Shown in pieces: positions 6,648 through 34,159 of a stretch of DNA of 46,488 nucleotides. Below the pieces are notes generated by a model. That model was not told where the DNA came from. It was given only the letters and a program-made list of their open reading frames with translations, and did not search any database. The position numbers and the translations under genes were made by a program. How positions within the stretch are numbered: the stretch's first letter is position 1; every line of letters starts with the position of its first letter. This DNA is from Candidatus Limnocylindrales bacterium. Lineage in GTDB: Bacteria; Chloroflexota; Limnocylindria; Limnocylindrales; CSP1-4. The stretch is from NCBI GenBank assembly GCA_036393495.1, contig DASWGY010000230.1:1-46488 (forward strand). The letters are read 5' to 3'.

Positions 6648-6681
6648 ACTGTTGACATTCGACAATGACTGCCCATACGAT
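6648..6681 (+). promoter_or_regulatory. candidate promoter (-35 TTGACA, 18 nt, -10 TACGAT) carrying the ACTGTTGACA island motif
   Basis: ACTGTTGACATT lies at 6648-6659, with TACGAT at 6676-6681, 40 nt upstream of the ATG at 6721. The same 10-mer recurs at other island promoters. Confidence 0.5.
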
Positions 6682-6720
6682 TCGGGTCATTCCGGCGCTT
6701 CAGCACACCAGGAGGGGTCA

Positions 6721-7188
6721 ATGGACCATCGTCGTCGCGACCTGTTCATCCTCGTCCCAGCCCCGGGCCGCGCCGACGAGGCAGCGGCCTTCGCCTCGGC
6801 CTGGCTACGCCAACTCGATGGCCACCCGGGGTACCTCGGTGGGGTGGTGGTCCGCGAATCGGCCGGCGAGATGCTCGAGAACACGATGGCCGTCATGATC
6901 GAGTTCGAGGACACGGCCGCCGCGAAGGCCCTGTGGCCCAAGATCGAGAACCTCGTCACCCCGATCTCGTCGGACGTGGCCGGCGCCCAGCCTCGCGACC
7001 AGGCGCCCGTCCTGACCCAGTTCCTCATCGATCGGGGCGACGATCACTCGGAAGCGACCGAGCTCCGGGCGGATGCCACCCGGAAGCTCGAATTCAACCG
7101 CGGGAACGGACTGTTCGCGCGGCTCCTCCACATGCACGGCGAGATCCTCGACGACTACCCGGCGAGTGGCGCCGGCCCGATGGCGTAG
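6721..7188 (+). CDS. hypothetical protein, possibly a dimeric alpha/beta-barrel (ABM-like) fold
   Basis: I trimmed the track ORF to the ATG at 6721, which is preceded by AGGAGG. The 155-aa product has good GC3. The functional call is weak and rests only on the LFILV...GYLGGVVVRES...AVMIEFED pattern. Confidence 0.45.
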   Translation: MDHRRRDLFILVPAPGRADEAAAFASAWLRQLDGHPGYLGGVVVRESAGEMLENTMAVMIEFEDTAAAKALWPKIENLVTPISSDVAGAQPRDQAPVLTQFLIDRGDDHSEATELRADATRKLEFNRGNGLFARLLHMHGEILDDYPASGAGPMA

Positions 7189-7248
7189 GCGCCGATCCCG
7201 CTCTCCGCGGGCCCAACGCCGGGGTCTGCGCCGCGTACACTGTCAACC

Positions 7249-7260
7249 GCCGACACCGTG
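7249..7260. promoter_or_regulatory. degenerate copy of the island operator (ACTGTCAACCGC) upstream of the first GntR gene
   Basis: It matches 9-10 of 12 positions of ATTGTCAACAGT and lies about 80 nt upstream of the ATG at 7339. Confidence 0.3.
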
Positions 7261-7338
7261 CAAGAGTCCGGCCAGCCCGGCATCGACCGGGCGACGGCTC
7301 ACCAACCCACCTCAGCCAAATCCGAGACATTGATCCCG

Positions 7339-8034
7339 ATGGCCAAACAGACAATCGTCCGGATCAAGCGCTCAACGCTGTCGTCGGTCGTGACCGATCG
7401 TCTCCGCGAGCTCGTCATCTCGGGTGCATACGAACCGGGCGCCCAGTTGAGCGAGGTCGAGCTCGCCGAGCAGTTCGGGGTCAGTCGCGGCCCAATCCGC
7501 GAAGGCCTCCAGCGCCTCGTTCAGGATGGCCTGCTCCGATCGGAGCCCCACCGTGGCGTCTTCGTCCCGAAAGTCGGGTCGGCCGATATCGCCGACATCT
7601 ACCTGGCGCGTGAAGCGATCGAAGGTGCCGCGATTCGGATCGTGATGGCTTCGGAGGGTCGGGCGACCGTCGTCGCGACGCTGCGGGACCTCGTCCGCCA
7701 GATGCGCGCCGCTACCGCCGCCGGGAAGTGGGCCCGGGTCGCCGACTTCGACATGCGGTTCCATCTCGAGGTCGTCCGAGCCTCCGGGAGCCCGCGGCTG
7801 CAACGGATGTACTCGACGTTGATCGACGAGACCCGAGTCGTCATGTCGATGACGGCCAACGTGCCCGGTCGCGAGGACTACGCCGAGGAGCACGACGAGA
7901 TCGCCGATCGGATCGAAGGCGGCAGCGTTGATTCCGCGGTCAGTACCCTCGCTCGTACATTCCGAGAGTCAAAACAGACGCTGACGACACAGGCGGCCCA
8001 GGTCGGGCACCCGGGCAGGGACGGGACCGACTAG
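7339..8034 (+). CDS. GntR-family transcriptional regulator (FadR/FCD subfamily), copy 1
   Basis: Start trimmed to the ATG at 7339. The N-terminal wHTH reads LSEVELAEQFGVSRGPIREGLQRLVQDGLL, followed by an all-helical FCD-like C-terminal domain. Confidence 0.85.
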   Translation: MAKQTIVRIKRSTLSSVVTDRLRELVISGAYEPGAQLSEVELAEQFGVSRGPIREGLQRLVQDGLLRSEPHRGVFVPKVGSADIADIYLAREAIEGAAIRIVMASEGRATVVATLRDLVRQMRAATAAGKWARVADFDMRFHLEVVRASGSPRLQRMYSTLIDETRVVMSMTANVPGREDYAEEHDEIADRIEGGSVDSAVSTLARTFRESKQTLTTQAAQVGHPGRDGTD

Positions 8035-8135
8035 GTCCCTGGCCACCGCGAGGCGAGCACCGCGAGGCTGACGATCCTGGGTCGCCGGGGACCGGAGATC
8101 CATGGTCCGAGCCCCGCCGGCATTCAGGGCGCTCG

Positions 8136-8169
8136 ATTGTTGACAGCTGACACTTGACAGCAGTAGAAT
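8136..8169 (+). promoter_or_regulatory. candidate sigma-70-type promoter (-35 TTGACA 8140-8145, 18 nt, -10 TAGAAT 8164-8169) with an ATTGTTGACAGC operator-like element
   Basis: Near-consensus hexamers sit in an AT-richer island 50 nt upstream of the GTG at 8222. A second TTGACA lies at 8154-8159. Confidence 0.55.
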
Positions 8170-8221
8170 CGGCGCGCATCGGCGGACCAACCAGCCGAGC
8201 GTCCGAGCCGGAGGTTCGCGG

Positions 8222-8893
8222 GTGGCCCACCCCTTCGACCCCAAGTTCGTCACCTTCGACTGCTATGGCACGTTGACCTGGTTCCAGATCAACAACTCGA
8301 CGAAGGGCATCCTCGGGGACCGCCTCTCGGTGCACCTTGCCCCGGCCTTCCTCGAGAGCTTCCGGGGCTACCGCATCGACGAGGTCCTCGGCGAGTGGCG
8401 TCCGTACCACGACGTCATCGCGAGCTCGTACCAGCGGGCATGCCAGCGGCACGGCGTCGAGTACCGGGATGCGGATGCTCGCGCGATCTACGAGTCGATC
8501 GGCACCTGGGGGCCGCACCCCGACACGCCGGGCGGCCTCGCCAGGCTCGCCACGAAGGTCCCCCTCGTCATCCTCTCGAACACCGACGATGACCTGATCC
8601 CGGGCAATGTCGCCCAGCTCGGCGCGCCGTTCGCGCATGTGCTGACGGCGCAGCAGGCGCACGCCTACAAGCCGCGTCTACGGGCGTTCGAGTACATGCT
8701 CGACACGCTCGGGGTGGGCCCTACCGAGATCGTCCACGTCTCGTCCAGCCTGCGCTACGACCTCATGCCGGCCTACGACCTCGGGATCACCAGCAAGGTC
8801 TACGTCAACCGGGGCCAAGAGCCGTCGGCGCCCTACTACGGCTACCGCGAGATCTCCTCGATCGCCGAGCTGCCCGGCCTGTTCGGCATCTAG
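8222..8893 (+). CDS. HAD-superfamily hydrolase, haloacid dehalogenase type II-like, copy 1
   Basis: 223 aa with the FDCYGTL nucleophile motif, ILSN, YKP and VSSS. It is preceded by GGAGGTTCGCG. Confidence 0.8.
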   Translation: MAHPFDPKFVTFDCYGTLTWFQINNSTKGILGDRLSVHLAPAFLESFRGYRIDEVLGEWRPYHDVIASSYQRACQRHGVEYRDADARAIYESIGTWGPHPDTPGGLARLATKVPLVILSNTDDDLIPGNVAQLGAPFAHVLTAQQAHAYKPRLRAFEYMLDTLGVGPTEIVHVSSSLRYDLMPAYDLGITSKVYVNRGQEPSAPYYGYREISSIAELPGLFGI

Positions 8894-8915
8894 GCGAGCA
8901 GCAGGGCAGCGCGTC

Positions 8916-10190
8916 GTGAAGAACGTCTCCTACTGGATCGACACGGCGCCGGTGGGCGTCGACTACCGCCGGTCAACCCTGCCCGAGCGGATCGACGCGG
9001 CGGTGATCGGCGGCGGCCTCACGGGCATGTCGGCCGCGATCCACCTCCGGGCAAAGGGTGCCTCGGTCGCTCTCCTCGAGGCCGAGCAGCTCGGCTGGGG
9101 CGCGTCGGCCAGGAACGGCGGCATGTCGACGCCGGGGATCACGATCAACTACCTCGCCGCGATCCAGCGCTACGGCGAGGATGTCGCCAACGAGATGTAC
9201 CTGGCCTACGACGCGGCCCTCAACACGGTCGAGCGCCTCGTGACGACCGAAGCGATCGACTGTGACTTTGCCCGGACCGGCAAGCTCAACCTCGCCTGCC
9301 GGCCGGCCCACTTCGATGCCTACCAGCGGACGGCTCAGGCGCTCGGCGAGAAGCTCGGCCACGAGACGATCGTGGTCCCGCCGGAGAAGATCCGGACCGA
9401 GATCGGTTCCGATTACTACGTCGGTGGCGTGATCGACCCGCGGGGCGGAGGGCTCCACGTCGGGAAGTTCTGCCGCGGGATGGCCGAGGTCGCCGCCCGA
9501 GCCGGTGCCGGGCTCCACGAGGCGGCCAAGGTCACCGGCCTCCGGCGGGTCGATGGCGGCCACGAGGTCCAGACGACGCGAGGGACCCTCGTGGCTCGCC
9601 AGGTGCTCGTCGCGACCGACGGCTACACGGGCGGGGCGACGCCCTTCTACCAGCGCCGGATCGTCCCGGTCGGGAGCTTCATCGTCGCCACGGAGCCCCT
9701 GCCCGAAGCGCTCGTCGACGAGCTCATGCCGACCCGGCGGATGGCCTCCGATTCCAAGAACCTGCTCTACTACTTCCGGATCACGCCCGACAATCGGATG
9801 CTCTTCGGCGGCCGGGCCCAGTTCGCGCTGTCCTCGCCGGCGGCCGACCTCAAGAGCGCGAAGATCCTCCGGAACGGGATGGTCAAGGTCTTTCCGCAGC
9901 TCGCCGACGCCCGGATCGACTACGCCTGGGGCGGGCTCGTCGGCGTCACCCTGGATCGGATGCCCCACGCCGGAGAGCACGACGGGGTCCACTACTCGAT
10001 CGGCTACAACGGCCACGGGGTCCAGATGGCCACCCACATGGGGATGGTCATGGCCGAAGTGATGGACGGCCACCCCGAGGCGAACCCGTGGCGCGGGCTC
10101 CGCTTCCGTGCCATTCCGGGTCATTTCGGGCCACCCTGGTTCCTGCCGTTCGCCGACGCCTACTACAAGCTCCGCGACGCGGTCGGCTGA
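8916..10190 (+). CDS. FAD-dependent oxidoreductase (DAO family), paralog A
   Basis: 424 aa with AAVIGGGLTGMSAAIHL (GxGxxG) and GASARNGG. It resembles gamma-glutamylputrescine oxidase. Confidence 0.85.
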   Translation: MKNVSYWIDTAPVGVDYRRSTLPERIDAAVIGGGLTGMSAAIHLRAKGASVALLEAEQLGWGASARNGGMSTPGITINYLAAIQRYGEDVANEMYLAYDAALNTVERLVTTEAIDCDFARTGKLNLACRPAHFDAYQRTAQALGEKLGHETIVVPPEKIRTEIGSDYYVGGVIDPRGGGLHVGKFCRGMAEVAARAGAGLHEAAKVTGLRRVDGGHEVQTTRGTLVARQVLVATDGYTGGATPFYQRRIVPVGSFIVATEPLPEALVDELMPTRRMASDSKNLLYYFRITPDNRMLFGGRAQFALSSPAADLKSAKILRNGMVKVFPQLADARIDYAWGGLVGVTLDRMPHAGEHDGVHYSIGYNGHGVQMATHMGMVMAEVMDGHPEANPWRGLRFRAIPGHFGPPWFLPFADAYYKLRDAVG

Positions 10191-10203
10191 CGGACCCCGC
10201 GAG

Positions 10204-10941
10204 GTGCGGCTCGACGGCAGGGTGGCAGTCGTCACGGGCGCTTCGGGTGGCATCGGACGCGCCATCGTCCAGGCCTTCGAGGAGGCGGGTGCGCGACAGG
10301 TCCTGACCGGCCGGAGCGAGGCGCCGGAGGGGCTCCCGGATGGCGCCCGGTATCTTGCCGGGGATGTCCTGGACGAATCCTTCGTCGAGCGCCTCATCGA
10401 GACTGCCCACGGCGAGTTCGGCCGGCTTGACGTCCTCGTCAACTGTCACGGTCGGCAGTTCGACTCGGACCTCGAGACCACCGACGTCAGGGACGCGAGC
10501 GCGGTCCTCGCGACGAACGTGACCGGAGCGTTCATCACGATGAAGCACGCCATCCCGCTGATGCTGGCCTCGGGCGGTGGCTCGATCGTCAACATCGCCT
10601 CCCGGCTCGGCATCGTCGGGATCGCCGGCCAGGCGATCTACTCGGCCTCCAAGGGCGGCCTCATCCTCCTGTCGAAGGGTGCCGCCATCGAGTACGCGGA
10701 TCGCGGCATCCGGGTCAACGTCGTGGCCCCCGGGCTGACGTTGACCCCAACCATCGAGGCGGCCTTCGGGCGCCGGCCGGATCCCGAGGCATACACGCGC
10801 CAGCGTGCCTCGACCATCCCGATGAAGCGCCTCGCCCGGCCCGAGGAGATCGCCGCCGCGGTCGTGTTCCTCGCGTCCGACGCCGCGAGCTACATCACCG
10901 GCGCAGTGTTGCCCGTCGACGGCGGCTACACCGCAGCATGA
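10204..10941 (+). CDS. SDR-family oxidoreductase
   Basis: Start trimmed to the GTG at 10204, just after the upstream stop. It has VTGASGGIGRAI (TGxxxGxG), NIAS and YSASK (YxxxK). Confidence 0.85.
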   Translation: MRLDGRVAVVTGASGGIGRAIVQAFEEAGARQVLTGRSEAPEGLPDGARYLAGDVLDESFVERLIETAHGEFGRLDVLVNCHGRQFDSDLETTDVRDASAVLATNVTGAFITMKHAIPLMLASGGGSIVNIASRLGIVGIAGQAIYSASKGGLILLSKGAAIEYADRGIRVNVVAPGLTLTPTIEAAFGRRPDPEAYTRQRASTIPMKRLARPEEIAAAVVFLASDAASYITGAVLPVDGGYTAA

Positions 10942-12308
10942 CGGCCGATCTGGCCTGGGGGTCGATCCGCGAGATCACGGGCGAGGTCCGCTCCGGCCAC
11001 GTGTCTGTGGTGGAGCTCCTCGAGGCCCAGCTGGCGAGGATCGAGCGCCTCCAGCCGGCCCTGAACGCGATCGCGACACTCGACGCCGGAGGCGCGCGGC
11101 TGGCCGCGCGGGCGGCCGATGCGGCACTGGACCGAGGAGACCCGGTCGGCCCGCTGCACGGGATCGCCCTGACCATCAAGGACTCCCATGCCGTCGCCGG
11201 AGTGCGATCGACGATCGGGGTCGCCGCGGTCGGAGACCGGGTGCCCGCCGAGGACGGCACCGTGGCGGCTCGGCTTCGTGCGGCGGGCGCGATCATTCTC
11301 GGCAAGACGAACCTGGCCTCATGGCTCTACGACATCCAGACGGTCAGCGAGCTCTTCGGTAGAACGAACAACCCCTGGGAGCTCGGGCGGACGGTGGGCG
11401 GTTCCTCCGGTGGGTCTGCCGCAGCCGTCGCCGCGGGTCTCTCGGTCGCCGACGTCGGGAGCGACTGTGGGGGCTCGGTCCGGATCCCTGCCTCGTTCTG
11501 CGGCGTCGTCGGCTTCAAGCCGACCGAGGGTCGGATCCCCGAGACCGGCCACCAGTGGACGGGGCGGCCACGGAGCCACTGGTACATGGAGTCGATCGGC
11601 CCACTGGCTCGGTCCGTCGAGGACGTCGAGCGGCTGTTCTCGATCCTTGCCGGGCCGGACGGGAGCGACTGGACCATCCCGCCTGTGCCACTCTCGTTGC
11701 GACGTCCCGCGGCGCTCCGCGGCCTTCGGGTGGCGGTCTGTGACGCGCTGCCCGGTCAGCCCGTGCAAGCCGAGGTCCGGGCGGCGGTGCGCCGTGTCGG
11801 GGAAATCCTCTCGGCCGAAGGGGCGATCGTGGAGCCGGCCCTGCCGGTCGTCGACTGGGACGCCCAGGCCGCGCTGCGCAGTCGCCTCTTCCGGTTCGCC
11901 GACCAGGCTGTCGTCGCCGATGGAGGAGGGGCGGGCGACGTGACGGAGTTCTTCGAGAGCCTCGACCAGCGGTCCCGCTTCGTGCGTGCGTGGACGTCGT
12001 TCTTCGAGACCTGGGACGTCCTCCTCCTGCCGTCGACGAACCGGACGGCCTTCACGCATCGGCCGAACCACGAGCCGCAGGAGATCGACGGCGCCCTGGT
12101 CGCCTACTGGACCCCGGAGCGCCACACGCAACCGGCGAACCTCACCGGAGGGCCGGCGATCAGCCTCCCAGCCGGCCTCGACGCCGACGGCCTGCCCATC
12201 GGCGTCCAGCTCGTTGGCGACCGGTGGCAGGACGAACGGCTTCTGGCGATCGCGCGGAGCGTGGAGCCGATCGCCGGCGGCTTTCTCCGACCACCGGTCG
12301 ATGCCTGA
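10938..12308 (+). CDS. amidase (amidase-signature family)
   Basis: 456 aa with the GGSSGGSAAAVAAG signature. The start overlaps the SDR stop (ATGA). Confidence 0.9.
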   Translation: MTADLAWGSIREITGEVRSGHVSVVELLEAQLARIERLQPALNAIATLDAGGARLAARAADAALDRGDPVGPLHGIALTIKDSHAVAGVRSTIGVAAVGDRVPAEDGTVAARLRAAGAIILGKTNLASWLYDIQTVSELFGRTNNPWELGRTVGGSSGGSAAAVAAGLSVADVGSDCGGSVRIPASFCGVVGFKPTEGRIPETGHQWTGRPRSHWYMESIGPLARSVEDVERLFSILAGPDGSDWTIPPVPLSLRRPAALRGLRVAVCDALPGQPVQAEVRAAVRRVGEILSAEGAIVEPALPVVDWDAQAALRSRLFRFADQAVVADGGGAGDVTEFFESLDQRSRFVRAWTSFFETWDVLLLPSTNRTAFTHRPNHEPQEIDGALVAYWTPERHTQPANLTGGPAISLPAGLDADGLPIGVQLVGDRWQDERLLAIARSVEPIAGGFLRPPVDA

Positions 12309-13284
12309 CGCCGCGCGGCAGGTCCCCGGCCGGATCCACGTGGTCCTGGTGGGGACGTGTCCGCCGGACGCCCGGCCGGGGCTGGCTGCGGCGATCGGTG
12401 ACGGGACGCTCGTCGACCTCGATGCCGCCACCGACGCGGACCTCCGCTCCGCGAACGCGGCGCTGGTGTGGGACTTTCGATGGACGGGGCTCGCCGAGCT
12501 CCTTGCGCGGGCGCCGCAGCTCTCGTGGGTCCAGGCGGCCTCTGCCGGCGTGGACCACCTCCGCGAGGCCCTCGTCGGGCGGCCCGACATCGTGCTGACG
12601 AACGCGGCCGGTGTCTATGAGCGGCCGATGGCCGAGTACGTCCTCGGGTTGATCCTCGCCCATGCCAAGGGCCTTTCGGCGACCTACGCCGCGCAGCGGG
12701 ACCGAGCCTGGCGCTACCGCGAGACGGCCCTCGTTGCCGGGTCGACCCTCGTCGTCGTCGGTGCCGGCCGGATCGGGACGGCGGTCGCGGCCCTGGCTGC
12801 CGCGGTCGGGATGGACGTGCTCGGCGTGCGGCGAACACCGGCCATGCCACCTCCGAAGCCGTTCTCGTCGATCGTCGGGATCGATGCGCTCGTGCCGACG
12901 ATCGCACAGGCCGACTACGTCGTCGTCACGACACCGGCGACGACGTCGACCGCCGGGCTGCTCGACTCCGCCGCACTCAGGGCCATGAAGCCCTCGGCCT
13001 ACCTCATCAACGTCGGGCGGGCCGCCGTCGTCGACACCGGTGCGCTCGTCGAGGCGCTGATCTCGGGCACCATCGCCGGTGCGGCGCTCGACGTCGTTGA
13101 GGACGAGCCCCTGCCGCCGGGCAGCCCGCTGTGGGTGGTCCCGAACCTCCTCATCTCGCCCCACATGTCGGCTGACGCCCACGGCTGGGCGACCCGCGTG
13201 GTCAAGCAGTTCGCCCGGAACGTCGCCCTCCGAGCCGCCGGACGGGCGCTCGAGTCGCGAGTCGATCCGGCGCGAGGCTACTGA
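12301..13284 (+). CDS. D-isomer-specific 2-hydroxyacid dehydrogenase family protein
   Basis: Start trimmed to the ATG at 12301, which overlaps the amidase stop by 8 nt. It has VVGAGRIGTAVA (NAD fold), a later INVGR motif, and a C-terminal ...D...SPH. Confidence 0.8.
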   Translation: MPDAARQVPGRIHVVLVGTCPPDARPGLAAAIGDGTLVDLDAATDADLRSANAALVWDFRWTGLAELLARAPQLSWVQAASAGVDHLREALVGRPDIVLTNAAGVYERPMAEYVLGLILAHAKGLSATYAAQRDRAWRYRETALVAGSTLVVVGAGRIGTAVAALAAAVGMDVLGVRRTPAMPPPKPFSSIVGIDALVPTIAQADYVVVTTPATTSTAGLLDSAALRAMKPSAYLINVGRAAVVDTGALVEALISGTIAGAALDVVEDEPLPPGSPLWVVPNLLISPHMSADAHGWATRVVKQFARNVALRAAGRALESRVDPARGY

Positions 13285-14510: not shown

Positions 14511-14531
14511 CCGCCCTCCCCTTGCTCGTCG

Positions 14532-14543
14532 ACTGTTGACAAC
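14532..14543. promoter_or_regulatory. island operator/-35 element ACTGTTGACAAC in the divergent enolase / HAD-2 intergenic region
   Basis: It is an exact copy of the ACTGTTGACA 10-mer. It sits inside a possible TTGCTC-17-TACTAT promoter on the + strand and just downstream of a TATAGT on the - strand. Confidence 0.45.
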
Positions 14544-14596
14544 ATACTATACCTGTGCGCAGTCGGCCAGCACCCGACCAGGCCAAGGAGGTTCGC

Positions 14597-15280: not shown

Positions 15281-15287
15281 CGCCGGC

Positions 15288-16436: not shown

Positions 16437-16447
16437 GGAGGACCCCG

Positions 16448-16819
16448 ATGCCGAAGTCAATCCCAGCAGACGCCGTCTCCACGGGCGACCCGTACTCGGA
16501 GATCGTCGAGGCCAGCGGACTCGTGTTCGTGGCCGGGCAGATCGGGATCGGCCGCGACCAGCGGGCCGAGGAGGTGCCGTTCCAGGACGAGGTCCGGGCG
16601 ATGTTCGGACGCGTCGAAGCTGCCCTCGCCCGGGTCGGGCTGGGCCTCGACAGCGTTGTCCGCTGCACGGTCTACCTGACCGACTTCGAGACCTTCGCCC
16701 AGATGAACGACGTCTTCAGGAGTGTCTTTCCGACGCAACCGCCGGCGCGGGCGACCGTGGGCGTGACGCGACTCGCCCGCGATTGCCGGATCGAGGTCGA
16801 GGTGACTGCCGCTCGCTGA
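16448..16819 (+). CDS. RidA/YjgF/UK114-family enamine/imine deaminase
   Basis: 123 aa with GLVFVAGQIG...VYLTDF...ARATVGV..L....IEVEV, typical of the RidA family. Confidence 0.85.
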   Translation: MPKSIPADAVSTGDPYSEIVEASGLVFVAGQIGIGRDQRAEEVPFQDEVRAMFGRVEAALARVGLGLDSVVRCTVYLTDFETFAQMNDVFRSVFPTQPPARATVGVTRLARDCRIEVEVTAAR

Positions 16820-16849
16820 GGGATCGTCGACCGCCAGACGGCCGGCCTC

Positions 16850-17254: not shown

Positions 17255-17297
17255 GACGGCCTCCCTGCGGGCGTGCGTCGGCGTCTCGGGCTGCCCG

Positions 17298-18653: not shown

Positions 18654-18680
18654 GGTGGGCCTCGATTCAGTCAGGAAGCC

Positions 18681-25288: not shown

Positions 25289-25310
25289 CGGCCACCGCCA
25301 GGCTGCCGGC

Positions 25311-26270: not shown

Positions 26271-26308
26271 GGCGCTGGCGAACGGGTCGGTGCGCGGGTC
26301 GGCGCAGG

Positions 26309-27652
26309 TCAGGTGGACCCGCGATGGCCCTCGGAGCCGATCGGCACGAATGGCGGGGGGGCGGGATCGTGGCCTCGAGTCCGTTCGTGATGGTCGTCCC
26401 CGACGTGGTCGCAGGGGTCGATGTGCACGAGGATCGCGTCGAGCTTGCGGACGTCGTGGTACGCCGCGTGCCGGATGTCCTCGGCCAGCTTGTGGCCGTC
26501 GGCGACGGTGAGCGTGCAGTCGACGACGGCGTGGAGGCTGGCTTCGAGGCGATGGCCGATCCAGCGGACGCGGATCGAGCTGACGTCGATGACGCCCGGC
26601 ACGGCTTTCGCCTGGCGCTCGATCGTGTCGACGAGCGCCGGGTCGACCGCATCCATGAGCCGCCCGAAGACGGCGATCACGGCGTCGCGGAGGACGATGA
26701 GGATTGCGGCGGTGATGAGGAGGCCAACGATCGGGTCGGCCAGCGGAAAGCCGAGCATGAACCCGAAGGCCCCAATCACCACGGCCAGCGACGTGAGGCC
26801 GTCGGTCCGGGCGTGGTAGCCGTCCGCGACGAGCGCGGCTGAGCCGATCTCCTTGCCGACGCGGATCCGGTACGACGCCACGGCCTCGTTGCCGAGGAAG
26901 CCGAAAAACCCGGCCGCGACCACGAGCCACGGGTTGGTGAGCGGGTGGGGATCGATGAGGCGCTGGATCGACTCGGCGCCGGCGATGAGCGCGGACAGCG
27001 CGATCATCAGGACGATGAACAGCCCGGCCAGATCCTCGGCCCGGCGGTAGCCGTACGTGTATCGCTTGTTCGCCTGGCGGCGGGCGAGGATGAACGCGAT
27101 CCAGAGCGGGATCGAGGTCAGTGCATCCGAGAAGTTGTGGATGGTGTCCGCGAGGAGCGCCACGGAACCCGTGACGAGGACGAGGAGCACCTGGGCGACG
27201 GCCGTCGCCATGAGGACGATGAGCGAGACCTTGACGGCCCGGATGCCCCTGACGTTGGAGAGGATCGCGTCGTCGACCGAATCCGCCGAGTCGTGGCTGT
27301 GGGGCTTGATGAGCTCGTAGATGAAGCCCTTGATCCCGGATGGGTGGTCGTGGTCGTCATGGTCGCCATCGCCGTGGTCATGATCATCGTCGGGATGGTC
27401 GTGGTCGACGTGGGCGTGCGCGTGGTCGTCGTTGCCGCCGCCGGCGTCGTGGTCGTGGCCGCCATGCGCGTGGCTGCCGTGGGGGTGGGCGTGGCCGTGG
27501 GCCTCGGCCGGATGCGGGTTCGGCTCGTCGAGGTAGCCGGAGGGGTGCGGATGATCGTGGTCGTGATCGCCGGCCGGCTCGTCCCCACCGGGATGCGGAT
27601 GGGGGTGGTCGTCGTCGTGGGCCTGCTGCCCGCCACGGGACTGTTCGGTCAC
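26309..27652 (-). CDS. cation diffusion facilitator (CDF) transporter with a ~110-aa His/Asp-rich N-terminal extension
   Basis: GTG start after AGGGAGA. The N-terminus reads HDDDHPHPHPGGDEPAGDHDHDHPHP...HGHAHPHGSHAHGGHDHD...DHDHPDDDHDHGDGDHDDHDHP. The CDF core follows (LLADTIHNFSD...YGYRRAED...HARTDGL). Confidence 0.9.
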   Translation of the reverse strand: MTEQSRGGQQAHDDDHPHPHPGGDEPAGDHDHDHPHPSGYLDEPNPHPAEAHGHAHPHGSHAHGGHDHDAGGGNDDHAHAHVDHDHPDDDHDHGDGDHDDHDHPSGIKGFIYELIKPHSHDSADSVDDAILSNVRGIRAVKVSLIVLMATAVAQVLLVLVTGSVALLADTIHNFSDALTSIPLWIAFILARRQANKRYTYGYRRAEDLAGLFIVLMIALSALIAGAESIQRLIDPHPLTNPWLVVAAGFFGFLGNEAVASYRIRVGKEIGSAALVADGYHARTDGLTSLAVVIGAFGFMLGFPLADPIVGLLITAAILIVLRDAVIAVFGRLMDAVDPALVDTIERQAKAVPGVIDVSSIRVRWIGHRLEASLHAVVDCTLTVADGHKLAEDIRHAAYHDVRKLDAILVHIDPCDHVGDDHHERTRGHDPAPPPFVPIGSEGHRGST

Positions 27653-27677
27653 GCCTGTCTCCCTGTCCTGCTGCCGA

Positions 27678-29090
27678 TCACACGTTGAGGCAGACGACCT
27701 TTGTGGTCGTCATCTCTCGAGCGGCGAAGGGCACGCCCTCGCGACCCAGGCCGGATCCCTTGACCCCACCGAACGGCATCGCATCGATCCGATAGTCGGT
27801 GCTCTCGTTGACGAGGACGGCGCCGGCGTCGACCTCGCGGACGACGCGCATCGCAGCCATGATGTCACGGGTGAAGACACAGGCCTGGAGGGCCTGGTCG
27901 ACCTCGTTGGCCACGGCGATCGCCTCGTCCAGCGAGGCGACCTCGACGATTCCGGCCACTGGCCCGAAGATCTCCTCGCGAGCCAGACGGCTCGTCCGGG
28001 GCAATGCATCGATGAGGGTCGGCGCGATGCTCCGACCGCGACGGCTGCCGCCAACGAGGATGCGGCCGCCGAGGTCCACGGCTTCGGCGATGGTGGCCAT
28101 GATCCGATCCGCAGCCGCATCGCTGATCACCGGCCCGACATCGGTCGCCTCATCGAGCTTGGGCCCGCTGACGAGTCGGGCCGTCCGCTCGACGAGGAGG
28201 CGCCGGAGTGGCTCGGCGGCCCCACGCTGGACGATGATCCGCTGGACGTGAAGGCAGTTCTGACCAGCAGCCCAGAAGGCTCCCGACGTGATGGCCACGG
28301 CGGCGGCCTCGACGTCGGCGTCATCGAGGACGATCGCCGGCGAATTGGCGCCCAGCTCGAGGGCCAGCTTCTTGCGACCGGCGAGGCGAACCACCTGGTC
28401 ACCAATCTCGGGGCCGCCGGTGAACGAGACCATCGCCACCCGGGGATCGCCGACGAGTCGATCGCCGATGGCGGCGCCCCGGCCGGTGACGACCTGGAGG
28501 ATCCCATCCGGGATCCCGGCGGCCCCGAACGCCTCGGCGAGGGCCAGGGCCGAGAGCGGGGTCCGGCTGTGGGGCTTCACGATCACGGCGTTGCCGGCGG
28601 CGATCGCCGGCCCGACCTTGTGGGCGACGAGGTTCAGGGGATCATTGAACGGCGTGATCGCGACGATGACGCCAATCGGCTGGCGGATCCAGTAGCCGAC
28701 CTTGTCCTCGCTCCCGGCACGCTGGTCGAACGCCAGGGTCTCGCCATGGAGCCGTCGCGACTCCTCGGCCGAGAGACGGAGGGTCTCGATGCAGCGTCCG
28801 ACCTCGGCGCGGGCCTCTCGGATCGTCTTGATGCCTTCCCGGGCGATCGTCGTGGCGAAGGAGGCGCTCCGGGCCTCGACCTCGGCCGCGGCCCCGTTGA
28901 GGATCGCCATTCGGCGATGGACGGGCAGGGACCGGGAGCGCCGAGCCCCGTCGACCGCCGTCGCGAGGGCACGCTCGACGTCGGCGGGCGACGCGCTCGG
29001 GACGCGCCCAACGACGCTGTCGTCATCGGGGTCATGGACCTCGAGGAACGCGGGCTGGACCGCAGGCGCCCGCCCGAGGACCACGTGCAT
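27678..29090 (-). CDS. NAD(P)+-dependent aldehyde dehydrogenase
   Basis: Start trimmed to the ATG at 29090 after GGGAGG. It has LELGANSPAIV (catalytic Glu region), AGQNCLHVQR (catalytic Cys) and FGGVKGSGLGREG. Confidence 0.88.
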   Translation of the reverse strand: MHVVLGRAPAVQPAFLEVHDPDDDSVVGRVPSASPADVERALATAVDGARRSRSLPVHRRMAILNGAAAEVEARSASFATTIAREGIKTIREARAEVGRCIETLRLSAEESRRLHGETLAFDQRAGSEDKVGYWIRQPIGVIVAITPFNDPLNLVAHKVGPAIAAGNAVIVKPHSRTPLSALALAEAFGAAGIPDGILQVVTGRGAAIGDRLVGDPRVAMVSFTGGPEIGDQVVRLAGRKKLALELGANSPAIVLDDADVEAAAVAITSGAFWAAGQNCLHVQRIIVQRGAAEPLRRLLVERTARLVSGPKLDEATDVGPVISDAAADRIMATIAEAVDLGGRILVGGSRRGRSIAPTLIDALPRTSRLAREEIFGPVAGIVEVASLDEAIAVANEVDQALQACVFTRDIMAAMRVVREVDAGAVLVNESTDYRIDAMPFGGVKGSGLGREGVPFAAREMTTTKVVCLNV

Positions 29091-29129
29091 CCGGTTGCCT
29101 CCCAACGGTAGGATGTCGGCAGTATGATG

Positions 29130-29141
29130 ATTGTCAACAGT
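29130..29141. promoter_or_regulatory. island operator ATTGTCAACAGT in the divergent ALDH / MFS intergenic region
   Basis: It is the exact reverse complement of the 20502-20513 12-mer. It is followed by TTTACGC, which also occurs at 34111-34117. Confidence 0.45.
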
Positions 29142-29176
29142 TTACGCAAGACTCGGGGGTGGAGGGAATTCGACGG

Positions 29177-30397
29177 GTGGCGCTGACGCGGTGGTACCCG
29201 TCGCTCGGCCCCGGGACGTATCGGCGCGTCTGGTCGGGCATCGTCCCGTATCACTTCGCCTTCCAGATCGGGATCGTCGCCACGGGAACGGCCGCGGTCG
29301 CCCTGTCGAGCTCGGCCCTCGAGGTCGGCCTGATGGTCGGCGCCTGGGGTCTGCCGATCCTCATCCTGCCGCCGTTCGGCGGGGTCGCGGCCGACCGCTT
29401 CTCGCGCCGCCGCACGATGGTCGCGGCCCAGGTGATCCTCGGCCTGGGGGCCCTCGCCGTGGGCATCCTGGCGCTGGCCGGCCTGCTCGGTGTCTGGCAC
29501 GTCATTGTCCTCGGCCTGGCCCAGGGCGGCGTCTACGCGTTCTTCGCCCCGGCCCGGACGGCCTACACCGCCGCCGCGGTGGACCGAGTGATCGTGCCGA
29601 ACGCGATCGCGGCCTACAGCCTGAGCGAGCAGATCGGGGCGGTCGTCGGGCCGGTGCTCGGCGGACTCCTCGTCGCGGTTCCGGTCATCGGCTACGGCTG
29701 GGCGTTCGTGCTCATCGCACTGATGCACCTCATGATCCTGGCGATCTTCCAGGGGCTGCCCGAGCAGTCACAGCCGGGTGCGACGAACGGCGAGACCGTC
29801 GTTGCGAGGATCCGGGCGGGGATCCGCTTCGCCCGGGCGACCCCGAGCCTGCGCGTCGTGCTGGTCGTATCGGCGATCGCGATGCTCCTGGGGATGCCCT
29901 TCCGCCAGCTCCTCCCGGTCTTCTCCGAGCGTGTATTCGAGGCCGGGCCGGCCGGCCTCGGCCTGCTGCTCGGGGCCGCAGGATTCGGGGCGATCGCGGG
30001 GGCGATCGGGGCCTCGCAGATCCGTGGCGGCGTTGGGCTGTGGCGCTGGTCCGGGGTCCTCGGCACCGCGTTTGGGCTGGGCGTGGTGGCGTTTGCGCTG
30101 TCGCCGACGTTCGCGGTCGGCGTCGCCCTCGTGGCCGTCGCCGGAGCCGCCACGGCCGCGTTCACGACGATCAACTCGGCGATCGTCGCGAGCATTCCTG
30201 ACCCGGCCTTCTTCGGTCGGGCGGCGAGCCTGTACCAGCTGACCTTCGCCCTCGGTCCGCTCGGCGCAATCCCGATCGCGGCCCTCGCCGACCAGATCGG
30301 TGCGCCGGGAGCGGTCGCGGCCGGAGGGCTGCTCCTCGCGCTCCTGGCACCGTTCGTCGCCCGGCACCTTGGCCGAGAAAGGAGCTTGACCTCGTGA
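29177..30397 (+). CDS. MFS transporter
   Basis: 12-TM hydrophobic profile. I prefer the GTG at 29177, which lies 10 nt after GGAGGG. The track start at 29159 is also possible. Confidence 0.8.
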   Translation: MALTRWYPSLGPGTYRRVWSGIVPYHFAFQIGIVATGTAAVALSSSALEVGLMVGAWGLPILILPPFGGVAADRFSRRRTMVAAQVILGLGALAVGILALAGLLGVWHVIVLGLAQGGVYAFFAPARTAYTAAAVDRVIVPNAIAAYSLSEQIGAVVGPVLGGLLVAVPVIGYGWAFVLIALMHLMILAIFQGLPEQSQPGATNGETVVARIRAGIRFARATPSLRVVLVVSAIAMLLGMPFRQLLPVFSERVFEAGPAGLGLLLGAAGFGAIAGAIGASQIRGGVGLWRWSGVLGTAFGLGVVAFALSPTFAVGVALVAVAGAATAAFTTINSAIVASIPDPAFFGRAASLYQLTFALGPLGAIPIAALADQIGAPGAVAAGGLLLALLAPFVARHLGRERSLTS

Positions 30398-31011
30398 TCG
30401 CCACCCCGGCGTACACGATTCGACCCGCCTCGGCGGCCGACCTTCCGGCGGCCAAGGCCCTCATGCGGCGGACCGTCGAGGAGGACTTCGGGACGCCGTA
30501 CGACCCGGCCTACCACCGCGACATCGACGACCTCGCCGGCTTCTATCTCGCGCCGCCCCGGCACCGGCTGTTCGTGGCCATCGACGCGGGCTCCGGCGCG
30601 CTCATCGGAACCGGCGGCATCCGGGTCGGCCGCCTCCGGGGCGGGCCAGAGCATCTTGTCCGCCGCTACGCCGGCGATGACACCGCCCAGCTCGTGCGGA
30701 TCTACGTCGGCCGCGAGCACCGCCGGCGGGGAATCGCCCGGGCGATCGTCCAGGCCTGCCTCGCCTTCGCCCTCGACGAAGGCGGCTACTCGATCATCGC
30801 CCTCCACACCTTCCCGCATTCGCCCGGGGCCTTGCCGTTCTGGCAGTCGATGGCCACCCAGGTCGGCTACCAGGAGCGCTCGCAGATCCCGCCCGAGGCG
30901 TTCTTCGAGATCGAGGTGGAGGCGGCCAGACGGATCGTGGCCGGTGAGTGGTCCGCGCGATCGGCGCCGGAATCGCCGGCCCCGGCGGCGCCAGGAACGT
31001 TGCCTGGCTAG
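30394..31011 (+). CDS. GNAT-family N-acetyltransferase
   Basis: 205 aa with a GTGA overlap with the MFS stop. It has the VGREHRRRGIARAIV acetyl-CoA-binding motif (Q/RxxGxG/A). Confidence 0.75.
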   Translation: MIATPAYTIRPASAADLPAAKALMRRTVEEDFGTPYDPAYHRDIDDLAGFYLAPPRHRLFVAIDAGSGALIGTGGIRVGRLRGGPEHLVRRYAGDDTAQLVRIYVGREHRRRGIARAIVQACLAFALDEGGYSIIALHTFPHSPGALPFWQSMATQVGYQERSQIPPEAFFEIEVEAARRIVAGEWSARSAPESPAPAAPGTLPG

Positions 31012-32183
31012 CGCGAGATCGTGGCCGACGAGGCCGTCTCGGTTGCGTCAACCCAGCGGCCGCCGCCGTCGAAGCGGCTGGCGTGGAAGGGCGACAGGTC
31101 GAACTCGCTGGCGCCCGTCGTCACGAGCTCCGCGAGCGCCCGTCCGATGGCCGGGGCGGTCTTGAAGCAGGTGCCGCTGTCGCCGACGAGACCGAGCAGC
31201 CCGTCGTAGCCGGCGAATGGCCCGATCACCGGGCGGCTGTCGATGGACCGCATCACGAGGCCCGTCCAGCCGCCGCGGCCCACGGCGCGGCGCATGACCG
31301 GGTAGCGGAGCGAGAGCTGCTCATGGCACAGCTCCACGTACGCCTGGTCGATCGTCTCGTCGAGCCGGTCCGGATCATCGACCTCGCGGCGGACGCCCCA
31401 CTCGGCACCCAGGAGGGTGTGCTCACCGAAGATCGGCCGGATCCAAAGCCCGTTGCGGTGGTCGATCGCGACGGGGTGGCGCTTGTCGCGGTCATGGGGC
31501 CAGCGGAAGACGGCGATTCGTGAGGTCGCCGGGACCATCGGCAAGTCGATCCCGAGGGGCCGGAGGAGGGCATGGGCCCAGCCGCCCGGGGCAATCACGA
31601 CATGGTCGCCATCGATATCGCCGGCCGTCGTGGCGACGCCGGTCACGCGCCCGCCGGCGTGGCGGATCGCGGTGACGGTCGTGTCCAGGCGGATCTCGAT
31701 GCCGAGCCGTTCGAGCACCGTCGCGAAGGCGTTGCAGGCCGCCATCCCGTCGACGACGCCGGCCGTCGGGTCGTAGCCCACGACCGCACCGTCCTCCACG
31801 CTCACGGAGCCGTCGATGTCGCGGAGATCGTCCGCGCTCACGATCCGGGCGGGGATCCCGAGCGACCGCTGGATCGCGAGGTTCGCCTCGAGCGCCGCCG
31901 TGTCGCCCGGGTCGGCAAACACCAGCTGACCGGTTTCGACGAACTGGCAGGCCACGCCGACTCGGTCCTCGAACGCCCGGAAGAACTCCAGCCCCTCGAG
32001 GGCCAGGCGTGTCTCGGGCTCATTCGAATAGTGCGTTCGGATGATCGCGCCGGACTTGCCCGACGCGCCGGCGCCGACGTGGCGGCGCTCGACGATGGTG
32101 ACGTCGCGGACGCCGCGCTGGACGAGCTGGAACGCTGTCGAGAGGCCGACGATGCCGGCCCCGACGATCACGACCTCAGGCAC
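31008..32183 (-). CDS. FAD-dependent oxidoreductase (DAO / sarcosine-oxidase-beta-like), paralog C
   Basis: Start trimmed to the GTG at 32183, so the Rossmann motif VVIVGAGIVGLSTA sits at the N-terminus. The start overlaps the P450 stop (GTGCCTGA). Confidence 0.8.
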   Translation of the reverse strand: MPEVVIVGAGIVGLSTAFQLVQRGVRDVTIVERRHVGAGASGKSGAIIRTHYSNEPETRLALEGLEFFRAFEDRVGVACQFVETGQLVFADPGDTAALEANLAIQRSLGIPARIVSADDLRDIDGSVSVEDGAVVGYDPTAGVVDGMAACNAFATVLERLGIEIRLDTTVTAIRHAGGRVTGVATTAGDIDGDHVVIAPGGWAHALLRPLGIDLPMVPATSRIAVFRWPHDRDKRHPVAIDHRNGLWIRPIFGEHTLLGAEWGVRREVDDPDRLDETIDQAYVELCHEQLSLRYPVMRRAVGRGGWTGLVMRSIDSRPVIGPFAGYDGLLGLVGDSGTCFKTAPAIGRALAELVTTGASEFDLSPFHASRFDGGGRWVDATETASSATISR

Positions 32184-33441
32184 GGGCGCGGGTCGCGTCG
32201 AAGATGACCGGGAAGGACATGAACGAGTAGCGCTCGCCCCGGTCATCCAGGGTCGGCGATCGATCGGGGTCGCGCCGCACCCCGCGGCGCGCGGTCTCCT
32301 GGACCATCAGCGCGACCTGGCCGTACAGGTGGTCGTCACGGGGCTGAAGGTCGCTCGGGACCGGGAGCCCGGCGGCCGACGACCGGCCCGGGCAGAGGTG
32401 CGGCCCGAATCCGAACGAGAGGCCCCAGCGGGGTACGCCCTCGCGGAGCTCGCGGTCGGGGTTGAACTCGTTCGCATCCGGACCGAAGAGCTCCTCGCTG
32501 CGGTTCGCCGTCCGGACGTCGAGCACGATCATCGTGTCGGCCGGGATGGAGACGCCTCCGATCTCGACGTCGGCCTCGGCGCGCCGCTTCATGCGCTCGG
32601 TCACGGGCCGCAACCGCAGGGTCTCGTGGATGCACCGGGCGACATACAGCCGATCGTCGACGATGCGGCGGCGCTCTGCCTCGTCCGCCTCCATCCGCGG
32701 GAGGAGGTAGTCGAGCGTGTGCAGGAGGGTCTGCGAGCTCGTGTGCGTACCGCCCTGGAGGTAGGTCGCCACTTCCCGCACGATCCGGCCGTCGTCCTCG
32801 AGCTGCAGCGCCGGGTCGTCGCGGTGGACCAGCAATGTCGTGAGGACGTCCTGGTGGGCGATCGACTCGAGCGTCCCGGCCTGCCGATGGGCCTCGATCG
32901 CTTCGAGGCGGCGAACCCAGGCCGGCCGCACGAAGTCTCGCTCGAATTCCTCGAGCGCGTTACGAACCTTCTTCCGCGCTGCCTCGGGATCCTTCATCTC
33001 GAGGAGGCTCGGACCGAGGCCGTTGGAGATGACGTCGACGATCGCGATGACCTGGCGGAGCTGGCCGACATCGTGGTGATCGACGTCGAAGCCCGCCCGC
33101 TTCGCGGCGAGGACGACGGCGATCAGCGGCGCGACCGAGGCGAGGTCGACCTGACCGGCCGGGGCATGCCGGTCGAGCATCTCTGTCAACAGTGTCGGGA
33201 ACAGGACGCGCTCGTGCTCACGGAGGCGTTCGGTTCGGAACTGTGTGTTTTCCACGCGCCGGCGCGCGCGCTGGAGCTCGCCATGCGCCGTGCTCACGGT
33301 GCCGTCGCCGGTGTTGCCCTCCGCGTAGGACCGCCTGTCGAAGCGGCGCGAGAGCTGCGGGTGCGCGAGGGCGTCACGGATGTCCTCGTACCTGGTGAAG
33401 ACGACCTGGGGGGCCGCCATCGTCATGACGTCGAGGGTCAT
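32176..33441 (-). CDS. cytochrome P450
   Basis: Start trimmed to the ATG at 33441 (ATGA overlap with the ferredoxin stop). It has the heme loop FGFGPHLCPG, the ExxR motif ETLRLRP, and an I-helix region YLQGGTHTSSQT. Confidence 0.85.
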   Translation of the reverse strand: MTLDVMTMAAPQVVFTRYEDIRDALAHPQLSRRFDRRSYAEGNTGDGTVSTAHGELQRARRRVENTQFRTERLREHERVLFPTLLTEMLDRHAPAGQVDLASVAPLIAVVLAAKRAGFDVDHHDVGQLRQVIAIVDVISNGLGPSLLEMKDPEAARKKVRNALEEFERDFVRPAWVRRLEAIEAHRQAGTLESIAHQDVLTTLLVHRDDPALQLEDDGRIVREVATYLQGGTHTSSQTLLHTLDYLLPRMEADEAERRRIVDDRLYVARCIHETLRLRPVTERMKRRAEADVEIGGVSIPADTMIVLDVRTANRSEELFGPDANEFNPDRELREGVPRWGLSFGFGPHLCPGRSSAAGLPVPSDLQPRDDHLYGQVALMVQETARRGVRRDPDRSPTLDDRGERYSFMSFPVIFDATRARA

Positions 33442-33695
33442 GAGCCCGCCGTCGTCGCGCCGAGAGCGTCGGGCCACCCCGCCGTCACGAGCACGATCGC
33501 CTCGACCGGACACGCTGCCGCCGCCTCGCGCAGGAGGGTGGGGTCCGTCGCCGCGGCGCCCGGCAGGACCTCCGAGATGAAATCCCGGTCGCTGACTCGG
33601 AAGGCCAGCGGAGCGAGCCGCGCACAGTCGCCCGTGCCGATGCAAAGGTCGCGATCGACGCCGACGGGCAGCGGCTCGGGCGCGGTGTCGCCCAT
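33438..33695 (-). CDS. small [3Fe-4S]-type ferredoxin
   Basis: 85 aa with CIGTGDC...CPVEAI. This is the Cx5C...CP pattern of actinobacterial P450-associated ferredoxins. Confidence 0.75.
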   Translation of the reverse strand: MGDTAPEPLPVGVDRDLCIGTGDCARLAPLAFRVSDRDFISEVLPGAAATDPTLLREAAAACPVEAIVLVTAGWPDALGATTAGS

Positions 33696-34036
33696 CAGTC
33701 GTGGGTGTGTCCGCGAGACATGACGAGGACGTACGAACCCGCCTCGAGCGCTCGCATGCTACGCGTCGTCCCGCGCGGGATCGTGTAGCTGTCACCGGCT
33801 CGCAGGACCTCGGTCCGACCGCCGATCGTCACCTCGAACGCCCCCGACACGATGAAGTTCGCCGTGTCCCATTCGTGGGCGTGGTCCCCGACGGTCTCGT
33901 GGTCCTTGTCCCAGAAGTACTCGGTGGCGCTGAGTGTGCTCGAGTCGGCGATGACTCGCTTCACGACCCCGTCCTTGACCGGCTGCGTGGAGGTCTCCCG
34001 AGCCAGCGTGATCCGGCTGGGGGCTTCGGTACTCAT
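33695..34036 (-). CDS. cupin-domain protein
   Basis: Start trimmed to the ATG at 34036 after GGGAGGA. It has GDHAHEWDTANFIVSG....G.......GDSYTIP, matching cupin motifs 1 and 2. The stop overlaps the ferredoxin start by 1 nt. Confidence 0.65.
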   Translation of the reverse strand: MSTEAPSRITLARETSTQPVKDGVVKRVIADSSTLSATEYFWDKDHETVGDHAHEWDTANFIVSGAFEVTIGGRTEVLRAGDSYTIPRGTTRSMRALEAGSYVLVMSRGHTHD

Positions 34037-34119
34037 GGGTGGCGTCCTCCCTCGGCTGGCACCGTCGCGGGGGACGGCCGCGGCTGCCCGCACTGCACGC
34101 GCCTGTCCAGTTTACGCCG

Positions 34120-34159
34120 ACTGTTGATTGTTCACAATCTGCGCGGTCACGGGTATCCT
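34120..34159 (+). promoter_or_regulatory. candidate promoter (-35 TTCACA 34131-34136, 17 nt, -10 TATCCT 34154-34159) overlapped by ACTGTTGATTGT and the perfect palindrome ATTGTTCACAAT
   Basis: ATTGT-TC-ACAAT at 34127-34138 is a perfect inverted repeat. On the opposite strand, TTGTGA-17-TAAACT could serve the cupin operon. Confidence 0.5.

Follow-up and report, generated by a model that had tools for sequence, protein, structure and literature searches.

Operators of the FadR subfamily of GntR regulators share a consensus of TKGT and ACMA boxes, in which GT and AC are usually 3 nt and in some groups 2 nt apart, and extra half-sites 7-12 nt off are common (Suvorova, Korostelev and Gelfand 2015, PMC4494728). 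The supplementary table of that study lists ATTGTTGACAAT, ACTGTTGACAAT, ATTGTCAACAAC and ACTGTTGACAGT as sites of PhnR in Burkholderia, Cupriavidus, Polaromonas, Ralstonia and Verminephrobacter, and ATTGTCAACAAT and ATTGTCGACAAT as sites of the GntR-type PrpR; we found no experimental tests of the PhnR_burk operators in the literature. In Pseudomonas aeruginosa, PmiR regulates the prp genes and senses 2-methylisocitrate, and electrophoretic mobility shift assays and DNase I footprinting identified two adjacent sites in the prpB promoter (PMC9728974). Here we analyse a 46,488-nt stretch of DNA from a Candidatus Limnocylindrales bacterium of the Chloroflexota (contig DASWGY010000230.1, hereafter the window; G+C 70.8%), in which the same words recur as a 12-bp element at promoters. 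On comparative grounds we consider it highly probable that this element is the operator of GntR1 and GntR2, two paralogous PhnR-like GntR/FCD regulators of the FadR subfamily that are encoded within the same window. The operator type is known, being PhnR/PrpR-like and of the FadR subfamily; the regulator subgroup is uncharacterised, the gene set is different and the phylum is new.

The 10-mer ACTGTTGACA occurs six times in the window, three times on each strand (6648+, 14532+, 20502+, 20431-, 29132- and 33184-), and with up to one mismatch there are eight matches against 0.51 expected, a count that none of 100 shuffles reached. The degenerate form YTGTYRACAR likewise gives six matches against 0.18 expected, with six reached in 0 of 100 shuffles, and eight window sites fit the palindromic model RYTGT-YR-ACARY. 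A 16-bp palindromic matrix, for which only sites from non-Chloroflexota loci were used in training, places the window's sites at ranks 1-8 among its matches; seven of its window matches reach at least 13.9 bits, where 300 first-order Markov nulls gave 0.06, and the mean maximum of the shuffles is 11.0. Once gene starts had been corrected, seven of the eight scoring sites proved to be intergenic and to precede about ten transcription units in the 6.6-35.4 kb region, in DNA whose non-coding share is about 4-10% (binomial P ~1e-9 at 4.2%). The hexamer TTGACA follows the same pattern, with eight of the ten copies in the whole window falling within the motif, and in the flanks (1-6.5 kb and 35.4-46.5 kb, 17 kb) the matrix and word scans found neither a motif site nor a TTGACA. 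The initial annotation of this DNA had listed nine copies and had placed nearly all of them in intergenic regions before operons, which agrees with the seven of eight scoring sites found here. The copies are present at the coordinates it quoted, with the exception of ACTGTCAACCGC, which lies at 7239 instead of 7249; seven intergenic sites and the copy inside the P450 gene make up the eight scoring sites, while the copies at 7239 and 34120 are weak.

The element is a 12-bp inverted repeat with arms YTGT/ACAR and 2 nt between GT and AC, and its consensus takes the form NyGT-Nx-ACNy of the A/T-rich palindromes that serve as FadR-subfamily operators. At the outer positions the symmetry mostly holds (AC..GT, AT..AT or GT..AC), and beyond them a G at -10 from the dyad, four bases off the 12-mer, and its mirror C at +10 are weakly conserved. 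Nearly all sites have TG/CA at the centre. TA was seen once (locus L003 in our set of related loci), CG in L019, the locus of a more distant homologue, and GG, GA or TC at the 34127 site and its orthologues, where the arms ATTGT/ACAAT are still perfect. The initial annotation had read the TGT-N2-ACA core as an operator of FadR/FCD type, and this is borne out both by the published consensus and by identity to catalogued predicted PhnR/PrpR sites (PMC4494728): the predicted PhnR operator ATTGTYRACAAT / ACTGTTGACAAT uses the very words found at the window sites, with variants such as ACTGTTGACAAT, ATTGTCAACAAC and ACTGTTGACAGT, and likewise has a G four bases upstream. This match came solely from the supplementary table, and a literature search with TGTTGACA and GntR returned nothing relevant. 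Compared with the generic FadR subfamily (FadR, LldR, PdhR, DgoR), the window shares the TKGT/ACMA palindrome, with presumed dimer binding and frequent divergent operon pairs served by one central or two sites (PMC4494728), but differs in its spacing of 2 nt instead of the commoner 3 nt and in a YTGT rather than a TGGT box.

Some sequence around the palindromes also recurs. GACA boxes with a 7-bp period adjoin three operators, at 6655-6668, 8148-8159 and 20418-20428 (TTGACAnnnGACA; three consecutive boxes at the 8136 site), and can be likened to the weak half-sites of the FadR subfamily. A degenerate inverted copy, CGTCAGCAG at 20490-20498, precedes the 20502 site by 14 bp centre to centre and is kept in relatives, and its counterpart in actinobacterial ALDH/SBP regions is CGTCAACTG. 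The GACA boxes and degenerate copies are possibly auxiliary half-sites for cooperative binding. An ATAC flank beside TTGACAAC was tried as an extension of the operator and rejected; it is perhaps better read as an opposite-strand -10-like TATGTT/TATGAT.

Both proteins named by the initial annotation as FadR/FCD-type GntR regulators do contain a GntR and an FCD domain. GntR1 and GntR2 are paralogues with 50% identity, and their helix-turn-helix (HTH) and recognition helix are nearly identical (VSRGPIREGLQRL vs VSRGPVREALQHL). The best family match of both, over the full length, is TIGR03338 (phnR_burk), with 135.4 bits for GntR1, where it leads by about 65 bits, and 122.8 bits for GntR2; the homologues tested also match this model best over their full length. 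The HTH of the regulators is 45-48% identical to that of PhnR, with the recognition-helix core SRGP(V/I)RE in common, and towards its C-terminal end the HTH domain resembles PhnR more than PrpR. Among PDB entries GntR1 best matches 7xp0, which is probably PmiR and whose HTH is of this PrpR type. PhnR, a betaproteobacterial regulator with a predicted regulon (RegPrecise, PMC4494728), resembles the window regulators in being a FadR/FCD-subfamily GntR protein, and also in having sites in divergent regions and ahead of the regulator's own operon. PrpR/PmiR (PA0797, Gammaproteobacteria) has the same word in its predicted sites, but its overall identity to the window regulators is only about 30%.

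The motif accompanies homologues of these regulators in Chloroflexota, Actinomycetota, and Alpha- and Gammaproteobacteria, counted here as four phyla. The closest genomes are two Chloroflexota metagenome-assembled genomes (MAGs), L001 (MAG254) and L002 (Candidatus Limnocylindrales), which are syntenic with the window and whose proteins are 65-98% identical. Loci that encode GntR1/2 homologues of 42-88% identity hold 1-7 motif copies each (L001-L006, L008, L018 and L055-L057; L003, L005, L006, L008 and L055 are actinobacterial MAGs and Nocardioides, L056 is the alphaproteobacterium Aureimonas, and L018 and L057 are metagenome contigs), and these copies are always intergenic, beside DAO, HAD, ALDH, aminotransferase or SBP5/Dpp genes. 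In the gammaproteobacterial L011, a gntR-prpBCD operon has two copies of ATTGTTGACAAT upstream. As background, about 300 kb of loci with distant homologues only yielded about three core 8-mers. A metagenome scan with GntR1 gave L017 (identical) and L018 (59%) as close relatives, the other, distant hits being used for this background; contigs with the exact GntR2 protein belong to the same population and add no divergence. The gntR2 gene occupies an equivalent position in L001-L003, L055 and L059. Words of similar build also adjoin FCD genes in a wider clade, whose homologues are 27-38% identical: in L019 (4641, 5631) and L027 (964), both metagenome contigs, and in L015 (4106, 4964), a Planctomycetota MAG, they read GTTGTCGACAAT (twice), ATTGTATACAGT and GTTGGTAACAAT, which suggests a distribution of TTGT-NN-ACAA operators over this wider clade.

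The position of the sites relative to promoters is equally regular. A simple sigma-70 scan of 6.3-21 kb found four promoter-like sites against 0.5 expected, and all four take the motif's TTGACA as their -35: TTGACA(6652)-18-TACGAT(6681), TTGACA(8140)-18-TAGAAT(8169) with 11 of 12 matches, TTGACA(20436, -)-16-CAGAAT and TTGACA(20506)-16-GACAAT; TTCACA(34131)-17-TATCCT is a fifth. The overlap with a -35 and a -10 at 16-18 nt, which had been proposed earlier, is therefore found at five sites, and two of the -10 boxes are conserved in four relatives. When the intergenic region between SBP5 and dppB is aligned with these relatives (L001, L002, L004 and L018 at the 20429 site), what stays conserved in otherwise diverged DNA is the pair of operators and, 16 nt from them, the pair of -10 boxes, CAGAAT and GACAAT; at 20502 the upstream CGTCAGCAG is kept as well. 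The sites at 14532 and 29130 lie between or over the -35, -10 and +1 of both divergent promoters, so that the two can be covered by one site. Overlapping -10-like hexamers, TACTAT and TATAGT, flank the operator at 14532 on the two strands, and the block gACTGTTGACAACATACTA is kept in L002, where much of the surrounding intergenic sequence differs. The 30-bp block tAGTATGaTGATTGTCAACAGTTTACGCAAG at 29130 is invariant in the window, L001 and L002 and is also present in L058-L060. The 6648 site has a GACA box 7 bp downstream, and the sites orthologous to 34127 read ATTGTGGACAAT (L058, L059) and ATTGTGAACAAT (L060).

Upstream of dppB, which has no ribosome-binding site of its own, lies a 17-codon open reading frame (ORF), MTVPVVATRSRPSRPGS at 20580-20632, with a GGAG ribosome-binding site and a TGA that precedes the ATG of dppB by two bases; at the equivalent place, L001, L002 and L004 have ORFs 18-20 codons long that resemble it at the N-terminus. 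The dppB upstream ORF possibly serves translational coupling or encodes a leader peptide.

These positions suggest how the element would most likely act, by repression that an effector releases. A dimer of GntR1 and/or GntR2 would sit on each palindrome; five promoters have their -35 hexamer (TTGACA, or TTCACA at 34131) at the centre of the site itself, and at 14532 and 29130 the block would extend over the spacer, -10 and +1 of both promoters, so that in either arrangement a bound protein would be expected to keep RNA polymerase out. The repressor would then be released by a small molecule bound in the FCD domain; this effector is probably an acid formed from the substrate that the Dpp-type ABC transporter brings in. 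Since gntR2 lies within a regulated operon, it would be auto-repressed, and the same may hold for gntR1, which is just downstream of a regulated ORF. The binding itself, the sign of regulation, the pairing of paralogues with sites and the nature of the effector are what we infer here from sequence comparison.

One could also speculate that the word is a housekeeping signal, a consensus -35 with a preferred upstream ACTG extension that the primary sigma factor reads. The centre of the motif is indeed the canonical -35 hexamer, and a -10-like hexamer follows 16-18 nt downstream at five sites, with two such boxes conserved. We nevertheless regard this as very improbable and as already largely refuted: only two of ten TTGACA lie outside the motif, with none at the other promoters of the window, in the flanks; the outer positions are palindromic; the 12-mer tracks a single clade of regulators across four phyla that use promoters very differently; and the orthologues of the 34127 site carry TGGACA or TTCACA between invariant arms. 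In three actinobacterial loci (L005, L006 and L008) the TTGACA moreover points away from the gntR gene downstream, so that the word cannot simply be a -35. A neighbouring thought, that the GntR proteins activate, or act in both directions, by recruiting RNA polymerase, has somewhat more to commend it and still appears quite unlikely. Class II activators, too, bind in the -35 region that the sites overlap, and some members of the FadR subfamily activate certain promoters, as E. coli FadR does at fabA. The centre of the sites is, however, at about -33.5, within the -35 hexamer, and not at -41.5, the sites at 14532 and 29130 cover the spacer, -10 and +1, and promoters with a consensus TTGACA should be strong unaided. 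PmiR, a prp regulator like the PrpR group that shares the 12-mer, is described as a direct repressor (PMC9728974), and catabolic FCD regulators are typically repressors released by an effector (PMC4494728).

A more serious competitor, which we consider possible if clearly the weaker option, is that only one paralogue reads the motif, the other having a different operator that escaped recognition or having lost DNA binding, in which case the island would not be one regulon of two regulators. The two proteins are merely 50% identical, and loci in Actinomycetota often combine a single regulator with the same motif; against this, the near-identity of HTH and recognition helix, the common best family model and the presence of sites flanking both regulator genes argue for a shared operator. 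That the copies are what is left of a small element, mobile or repetitive and akin to repetitive extragenic palindromes or miniature inverted-repeat transposable elements, was considered as well and rejected, with next to no probability left to it: short AT-rich intergenic repeats in a GC-rich genome can be of this kind, but the similarity between copies stops about 10 bp from the dyad, no longer shared flanks or target-site duplications were seen around the copies, the spacing to conserved -10 boxes and start codons is fixed in orthologous loci, and across phyla the copies go together with a clade of regulators.

Several observations count against reading the element as the operator of GntR1 and GntR2. 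The near-invariant, asymmetric TG centre is unusual for the site of a symmetric dimer and suggests that promoter function, as a -35, also shapes the sequence. Both regulators fall below the TIGR03338 equivalog cut-off of 271.5 bits, with scores under half of it, so that their specificity is deduced from motif co-occurrence and not from orthology. Two paralogues share one motif, so that either of them, or both, may bind it; the frequency of the motif was judged on the 46-kb window and related loci; and the evidence for regulator binding and expression control is comparative throughout. Finally, there is a good-scoring copy that is intragenic and not conserved. This copy in the P450 gene, to which the initial annotation had drawn attention, is a real, exact 10-mer, but no such copy is present in the P450 orthologues of L058-L060, and the related proteins P0121-P0132 (59-95% identity) have another peptide here. 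Amino-acid changes confined to this lineage, FPALL[S/N/V]E to FPTLLTE, gave rise to the copy, which as judged from these alignments is a recent lineage-specific change of uncertain function. The copy uses codons that are rare in the genome (ACA, TTG, ACA), including A-ending ones, at a G+C content at third codon positions (GC3) of about 0.85.

The genes behind the sites were called from GC3 bias, Pfam and NCBIfam, with starts corrected by ribosome-binding sites and checked against gene calls on identical metagenome contigs (Table 1). The initial annotation had assigned the heterogeneous genes of this region to one regulon, which our analysis supports as a prediction for about 6.7-35.4 kb.

Table 1 Sites, regulators and transcription units of the window (an empty cell means that no value is given)
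Feature	Position	Strand	Matrix score	Remarks
Predicted regulon	6721..35362			~10 transcription units, ~30 genes; annotation and synteny with L001, L002, L058-L060
Operator ACTGTTGACATT	6648..6659	+	13.9	Divergent region csoR (start 6582, -) / 155-aa ORF (ATG 6721); exact 10-mer
Weak candidate ACTGTCAACCGC	7239..7250		6.6	Upstream of GntR1; G for T at position 3; score under shuffle mean maximum
Operator ATTGTTGACAGC	8136..8147	+	16.9	Before the HAD1 to D-2-hydroxyacid dehydrogenase operon
Single operator ACTGTTGACAAC	14532..14543	+	20.7	Between enolase-superfamily gene (GTG 14510, -) and HAD2-DSD-RidA (GTG 14597, +)
Operator GCTGTCAACAGT	20429..20440	-	17.7	TTGACA is -35 of leftward SBP5-DAO2-SnoaL promoter
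Operator ACTGTTGACAAT	20502..20513	+	21.6	TTGACA is -35 of rightward dppB-dppC-gntR2-dppD-dppF-eamA promoter
Single operator ATTGTCAACAGT	29130..29141	-	25.1	Between ALDH(-CDF) (ATG 29090, -) and MFS-GNAT (GTG 29177, +); top score
Intragenic copy TCTGTCAACAGT	33182..33193	-	11.0	Coding, within P450 gene; codons ACA CTG TTG ACA GAG = TLLTE; exact 10-mer
Partial copy ACTGTTGATTGT	34120..34131	+	5.6	Overlaps 34127 site; independent site not supported
Variant operator ATTGTTCACAAT	34127..34138	+	22.1	Perfect arms, TC centre; between cupin-ferredoxin-P450-DAO3 (ATG 34036, -) and DAO4 (ATG 34196, +)
GntR1, PhnR-like GntR/FCD regulator	7339..8034	+		PF00392 69.6 bits, PF07729 79.8 bits, above gathering cut-offs
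GntR2, PhnR-like GntR/FCD regulator	22489..23145	+		Inside dpp-type ABC transporter operon; PF00392 69.5 bits, PF07729 83.4 bits, above gathering cut-offs
csoR (CsoR-family repressor)	6582 to 6304	-		Adjoins second P-type ATPase
155-aa ORF, then gntR1	from 6721; 7339-8034	+		
HAD1-DAO1-SDR-amidase-D-2-hydroxyacid dehydrogenase	8222-13284	+		
Enolase-superfamily gene	14510 to 13278	-		
HAD2 / D-Ser-dehydratase-like (DSD) / RidA	14597-16819	+		
SBP5-DAO2-SnoaL	ATG 20334	-		
dppB-dppC-gntR2-dppD-dppF-eamA	20635-26270	+		
ALDH(-CDF)	ATG 29090	-		
MFS-GNAT	29177-31011	+		
cupin-ferredoxin-P450-DAO3	ATG 34036	-		
DAO4	34196-35362	+		

Because of the link to PhnR, phosphonate catabolism was considered as the function of these genes (with a study of FAD enzymes of phosphonate catabolism, PMC10590968, as context only), and it was rejected, since the enzymes fail the PhnX, PhnY and TIGR03329 models. 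HAD1 and HAD2 fit the type II haloacid dehalogenase model TIGR01428, with the motif FDxYGTL, and PhnX is not among their matches at E <= 1e-5; DAO1 reaches 154 bits against the TIGR03329 cut-off of 633, and ALDH 381 bits against the PhnY cut-off of 636. The Pfam/NCBIfam annotation recognised no C-P cleaving enzyme and no PhnA-type domain. The regulon thus differs from that of PhnR in that its genes are not phnSTUV, phnW, phnX or phnA, and in having a Chloroflexota host, two paralogous regulators and about ten operons rather than one cluster. A prp regulon is ruled out by the lack of prpBCD genes in the window, where Pfam annotation found no PrpB, PrpC or PrpD domain in the island.

What recurs instead, in common with Aureimonas and Nocardioides, is a set of DAO oxidoreductases, HAD, ALDH, 2-hydroxyacid dehydrogenase, cupin, GNAT, M20/amidase and an SBP5 transporter, for which one could speculate about the oxidative cleavage of an imported N-substituted acid. 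A fuller version, which we put forward as a rather unlikely conjecture, would be a not yet described pathway that breaks down an N-substituted amino-carboxylate or poly-carboxylate after import (opine-, chelator- or metallophore-like) or a halogenated acid, with metal handling, repressors answering to two effectors and horizontal spread. If this doubtful scheme applied, its parts would be the four DAO-type amine oxidoreductases, two hydrolases of L-2-haloacid-dehalogenase type, the amidase, the D-2-hydroxyacid dehydrogenase and the enolase-superfamily enzyme, and further the D-Ser-dehydratase-like enzyme, cupin-ferredoxin-P450, the aldehyde dehydrogenase and the Dpp-type importer. The neighbouring conserved CDF, CopA and CsoR would, still within the same low-probability scheme, handle a released metal; the two paralogous PhnR-like repressors on one operator set might, no more probably, integrate two effectors; and the core of regulator, operator, DAO, HAD, ALDH and SBP5 would, with equally little assurance, have spread horizontally among Chloroflexota, Actinomycetota and Alphaproteobacteria.

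The initial annotation had also entertained the copper genes downstream as members of the regulon, and here the evidence points the other way. After DAO4, on the same strand, come genes for a Rieske protein (35431-35739), a YHS protein and a CopA-cupredoxin fusion, in an order kept in L058-L060. The 68-bp gap after DAO4 contains, at 35359-35414, a promoter-like TTGACG-17-AACAAT with TG, followed by the CsoR-type palindrome ATACTCCCCAGGAGTAT, and the matrix scan found no GntR-type site in this DAO4/Rieske gap; the copper genes are therefore assigned to a separate copper regulon, into which there may be read-through from DAO4.

The copper P-type ATPase (36341-39055, 904 aa) carries a C-terminal cupredoxin/plastocyanin-like domain, and the same fusion is found in L058 and L059. 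In Chloroflexota as well as Nocardioides eburneiflavus, the regulon contains or adjoins a CDF-type cation efflux gene (window 26309-27652, L055 12806-13756, L058 18084-20649), and in several relatives the island is flanked by P-type ATPases and metal-sensing repressors, an unexplained link between catabolic module and metal export. Elsewhere in the window, 1414-3072 (-) encodes an MFS transporter fused to a C-terminal cyclic-nucleotide-binding domain (552 aa), and a 1446-codon ORF at 40254-44591 (+), with a GC3 of 0.84, overlaps the aconitase-family gene at 40278-41720 (-), with a GC3 of 0.95.

Reading the element as the operator of the two PhnR-like regulators provides a regulon map, of about 10 promoters and 30 genes, for an uncultivated soil Chloroflexota lineage with almost no regulatory knowledge, and, given the effector, the operators would offer a handle for inducible promoters or a biosensor. 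An operator word of the PhnR/PrpR type has been kept over at least four phyla while the regulated pathway was exchanged, so that a motif match or a best family match alone would mislabel such genes as phosphonate genes. The conserved core of regulator, DAO oxidoreductase, HAD hydrolase, aldehyde dehydrogenase and SBP5 transporter, in turn, marks a widespread catabolic module.

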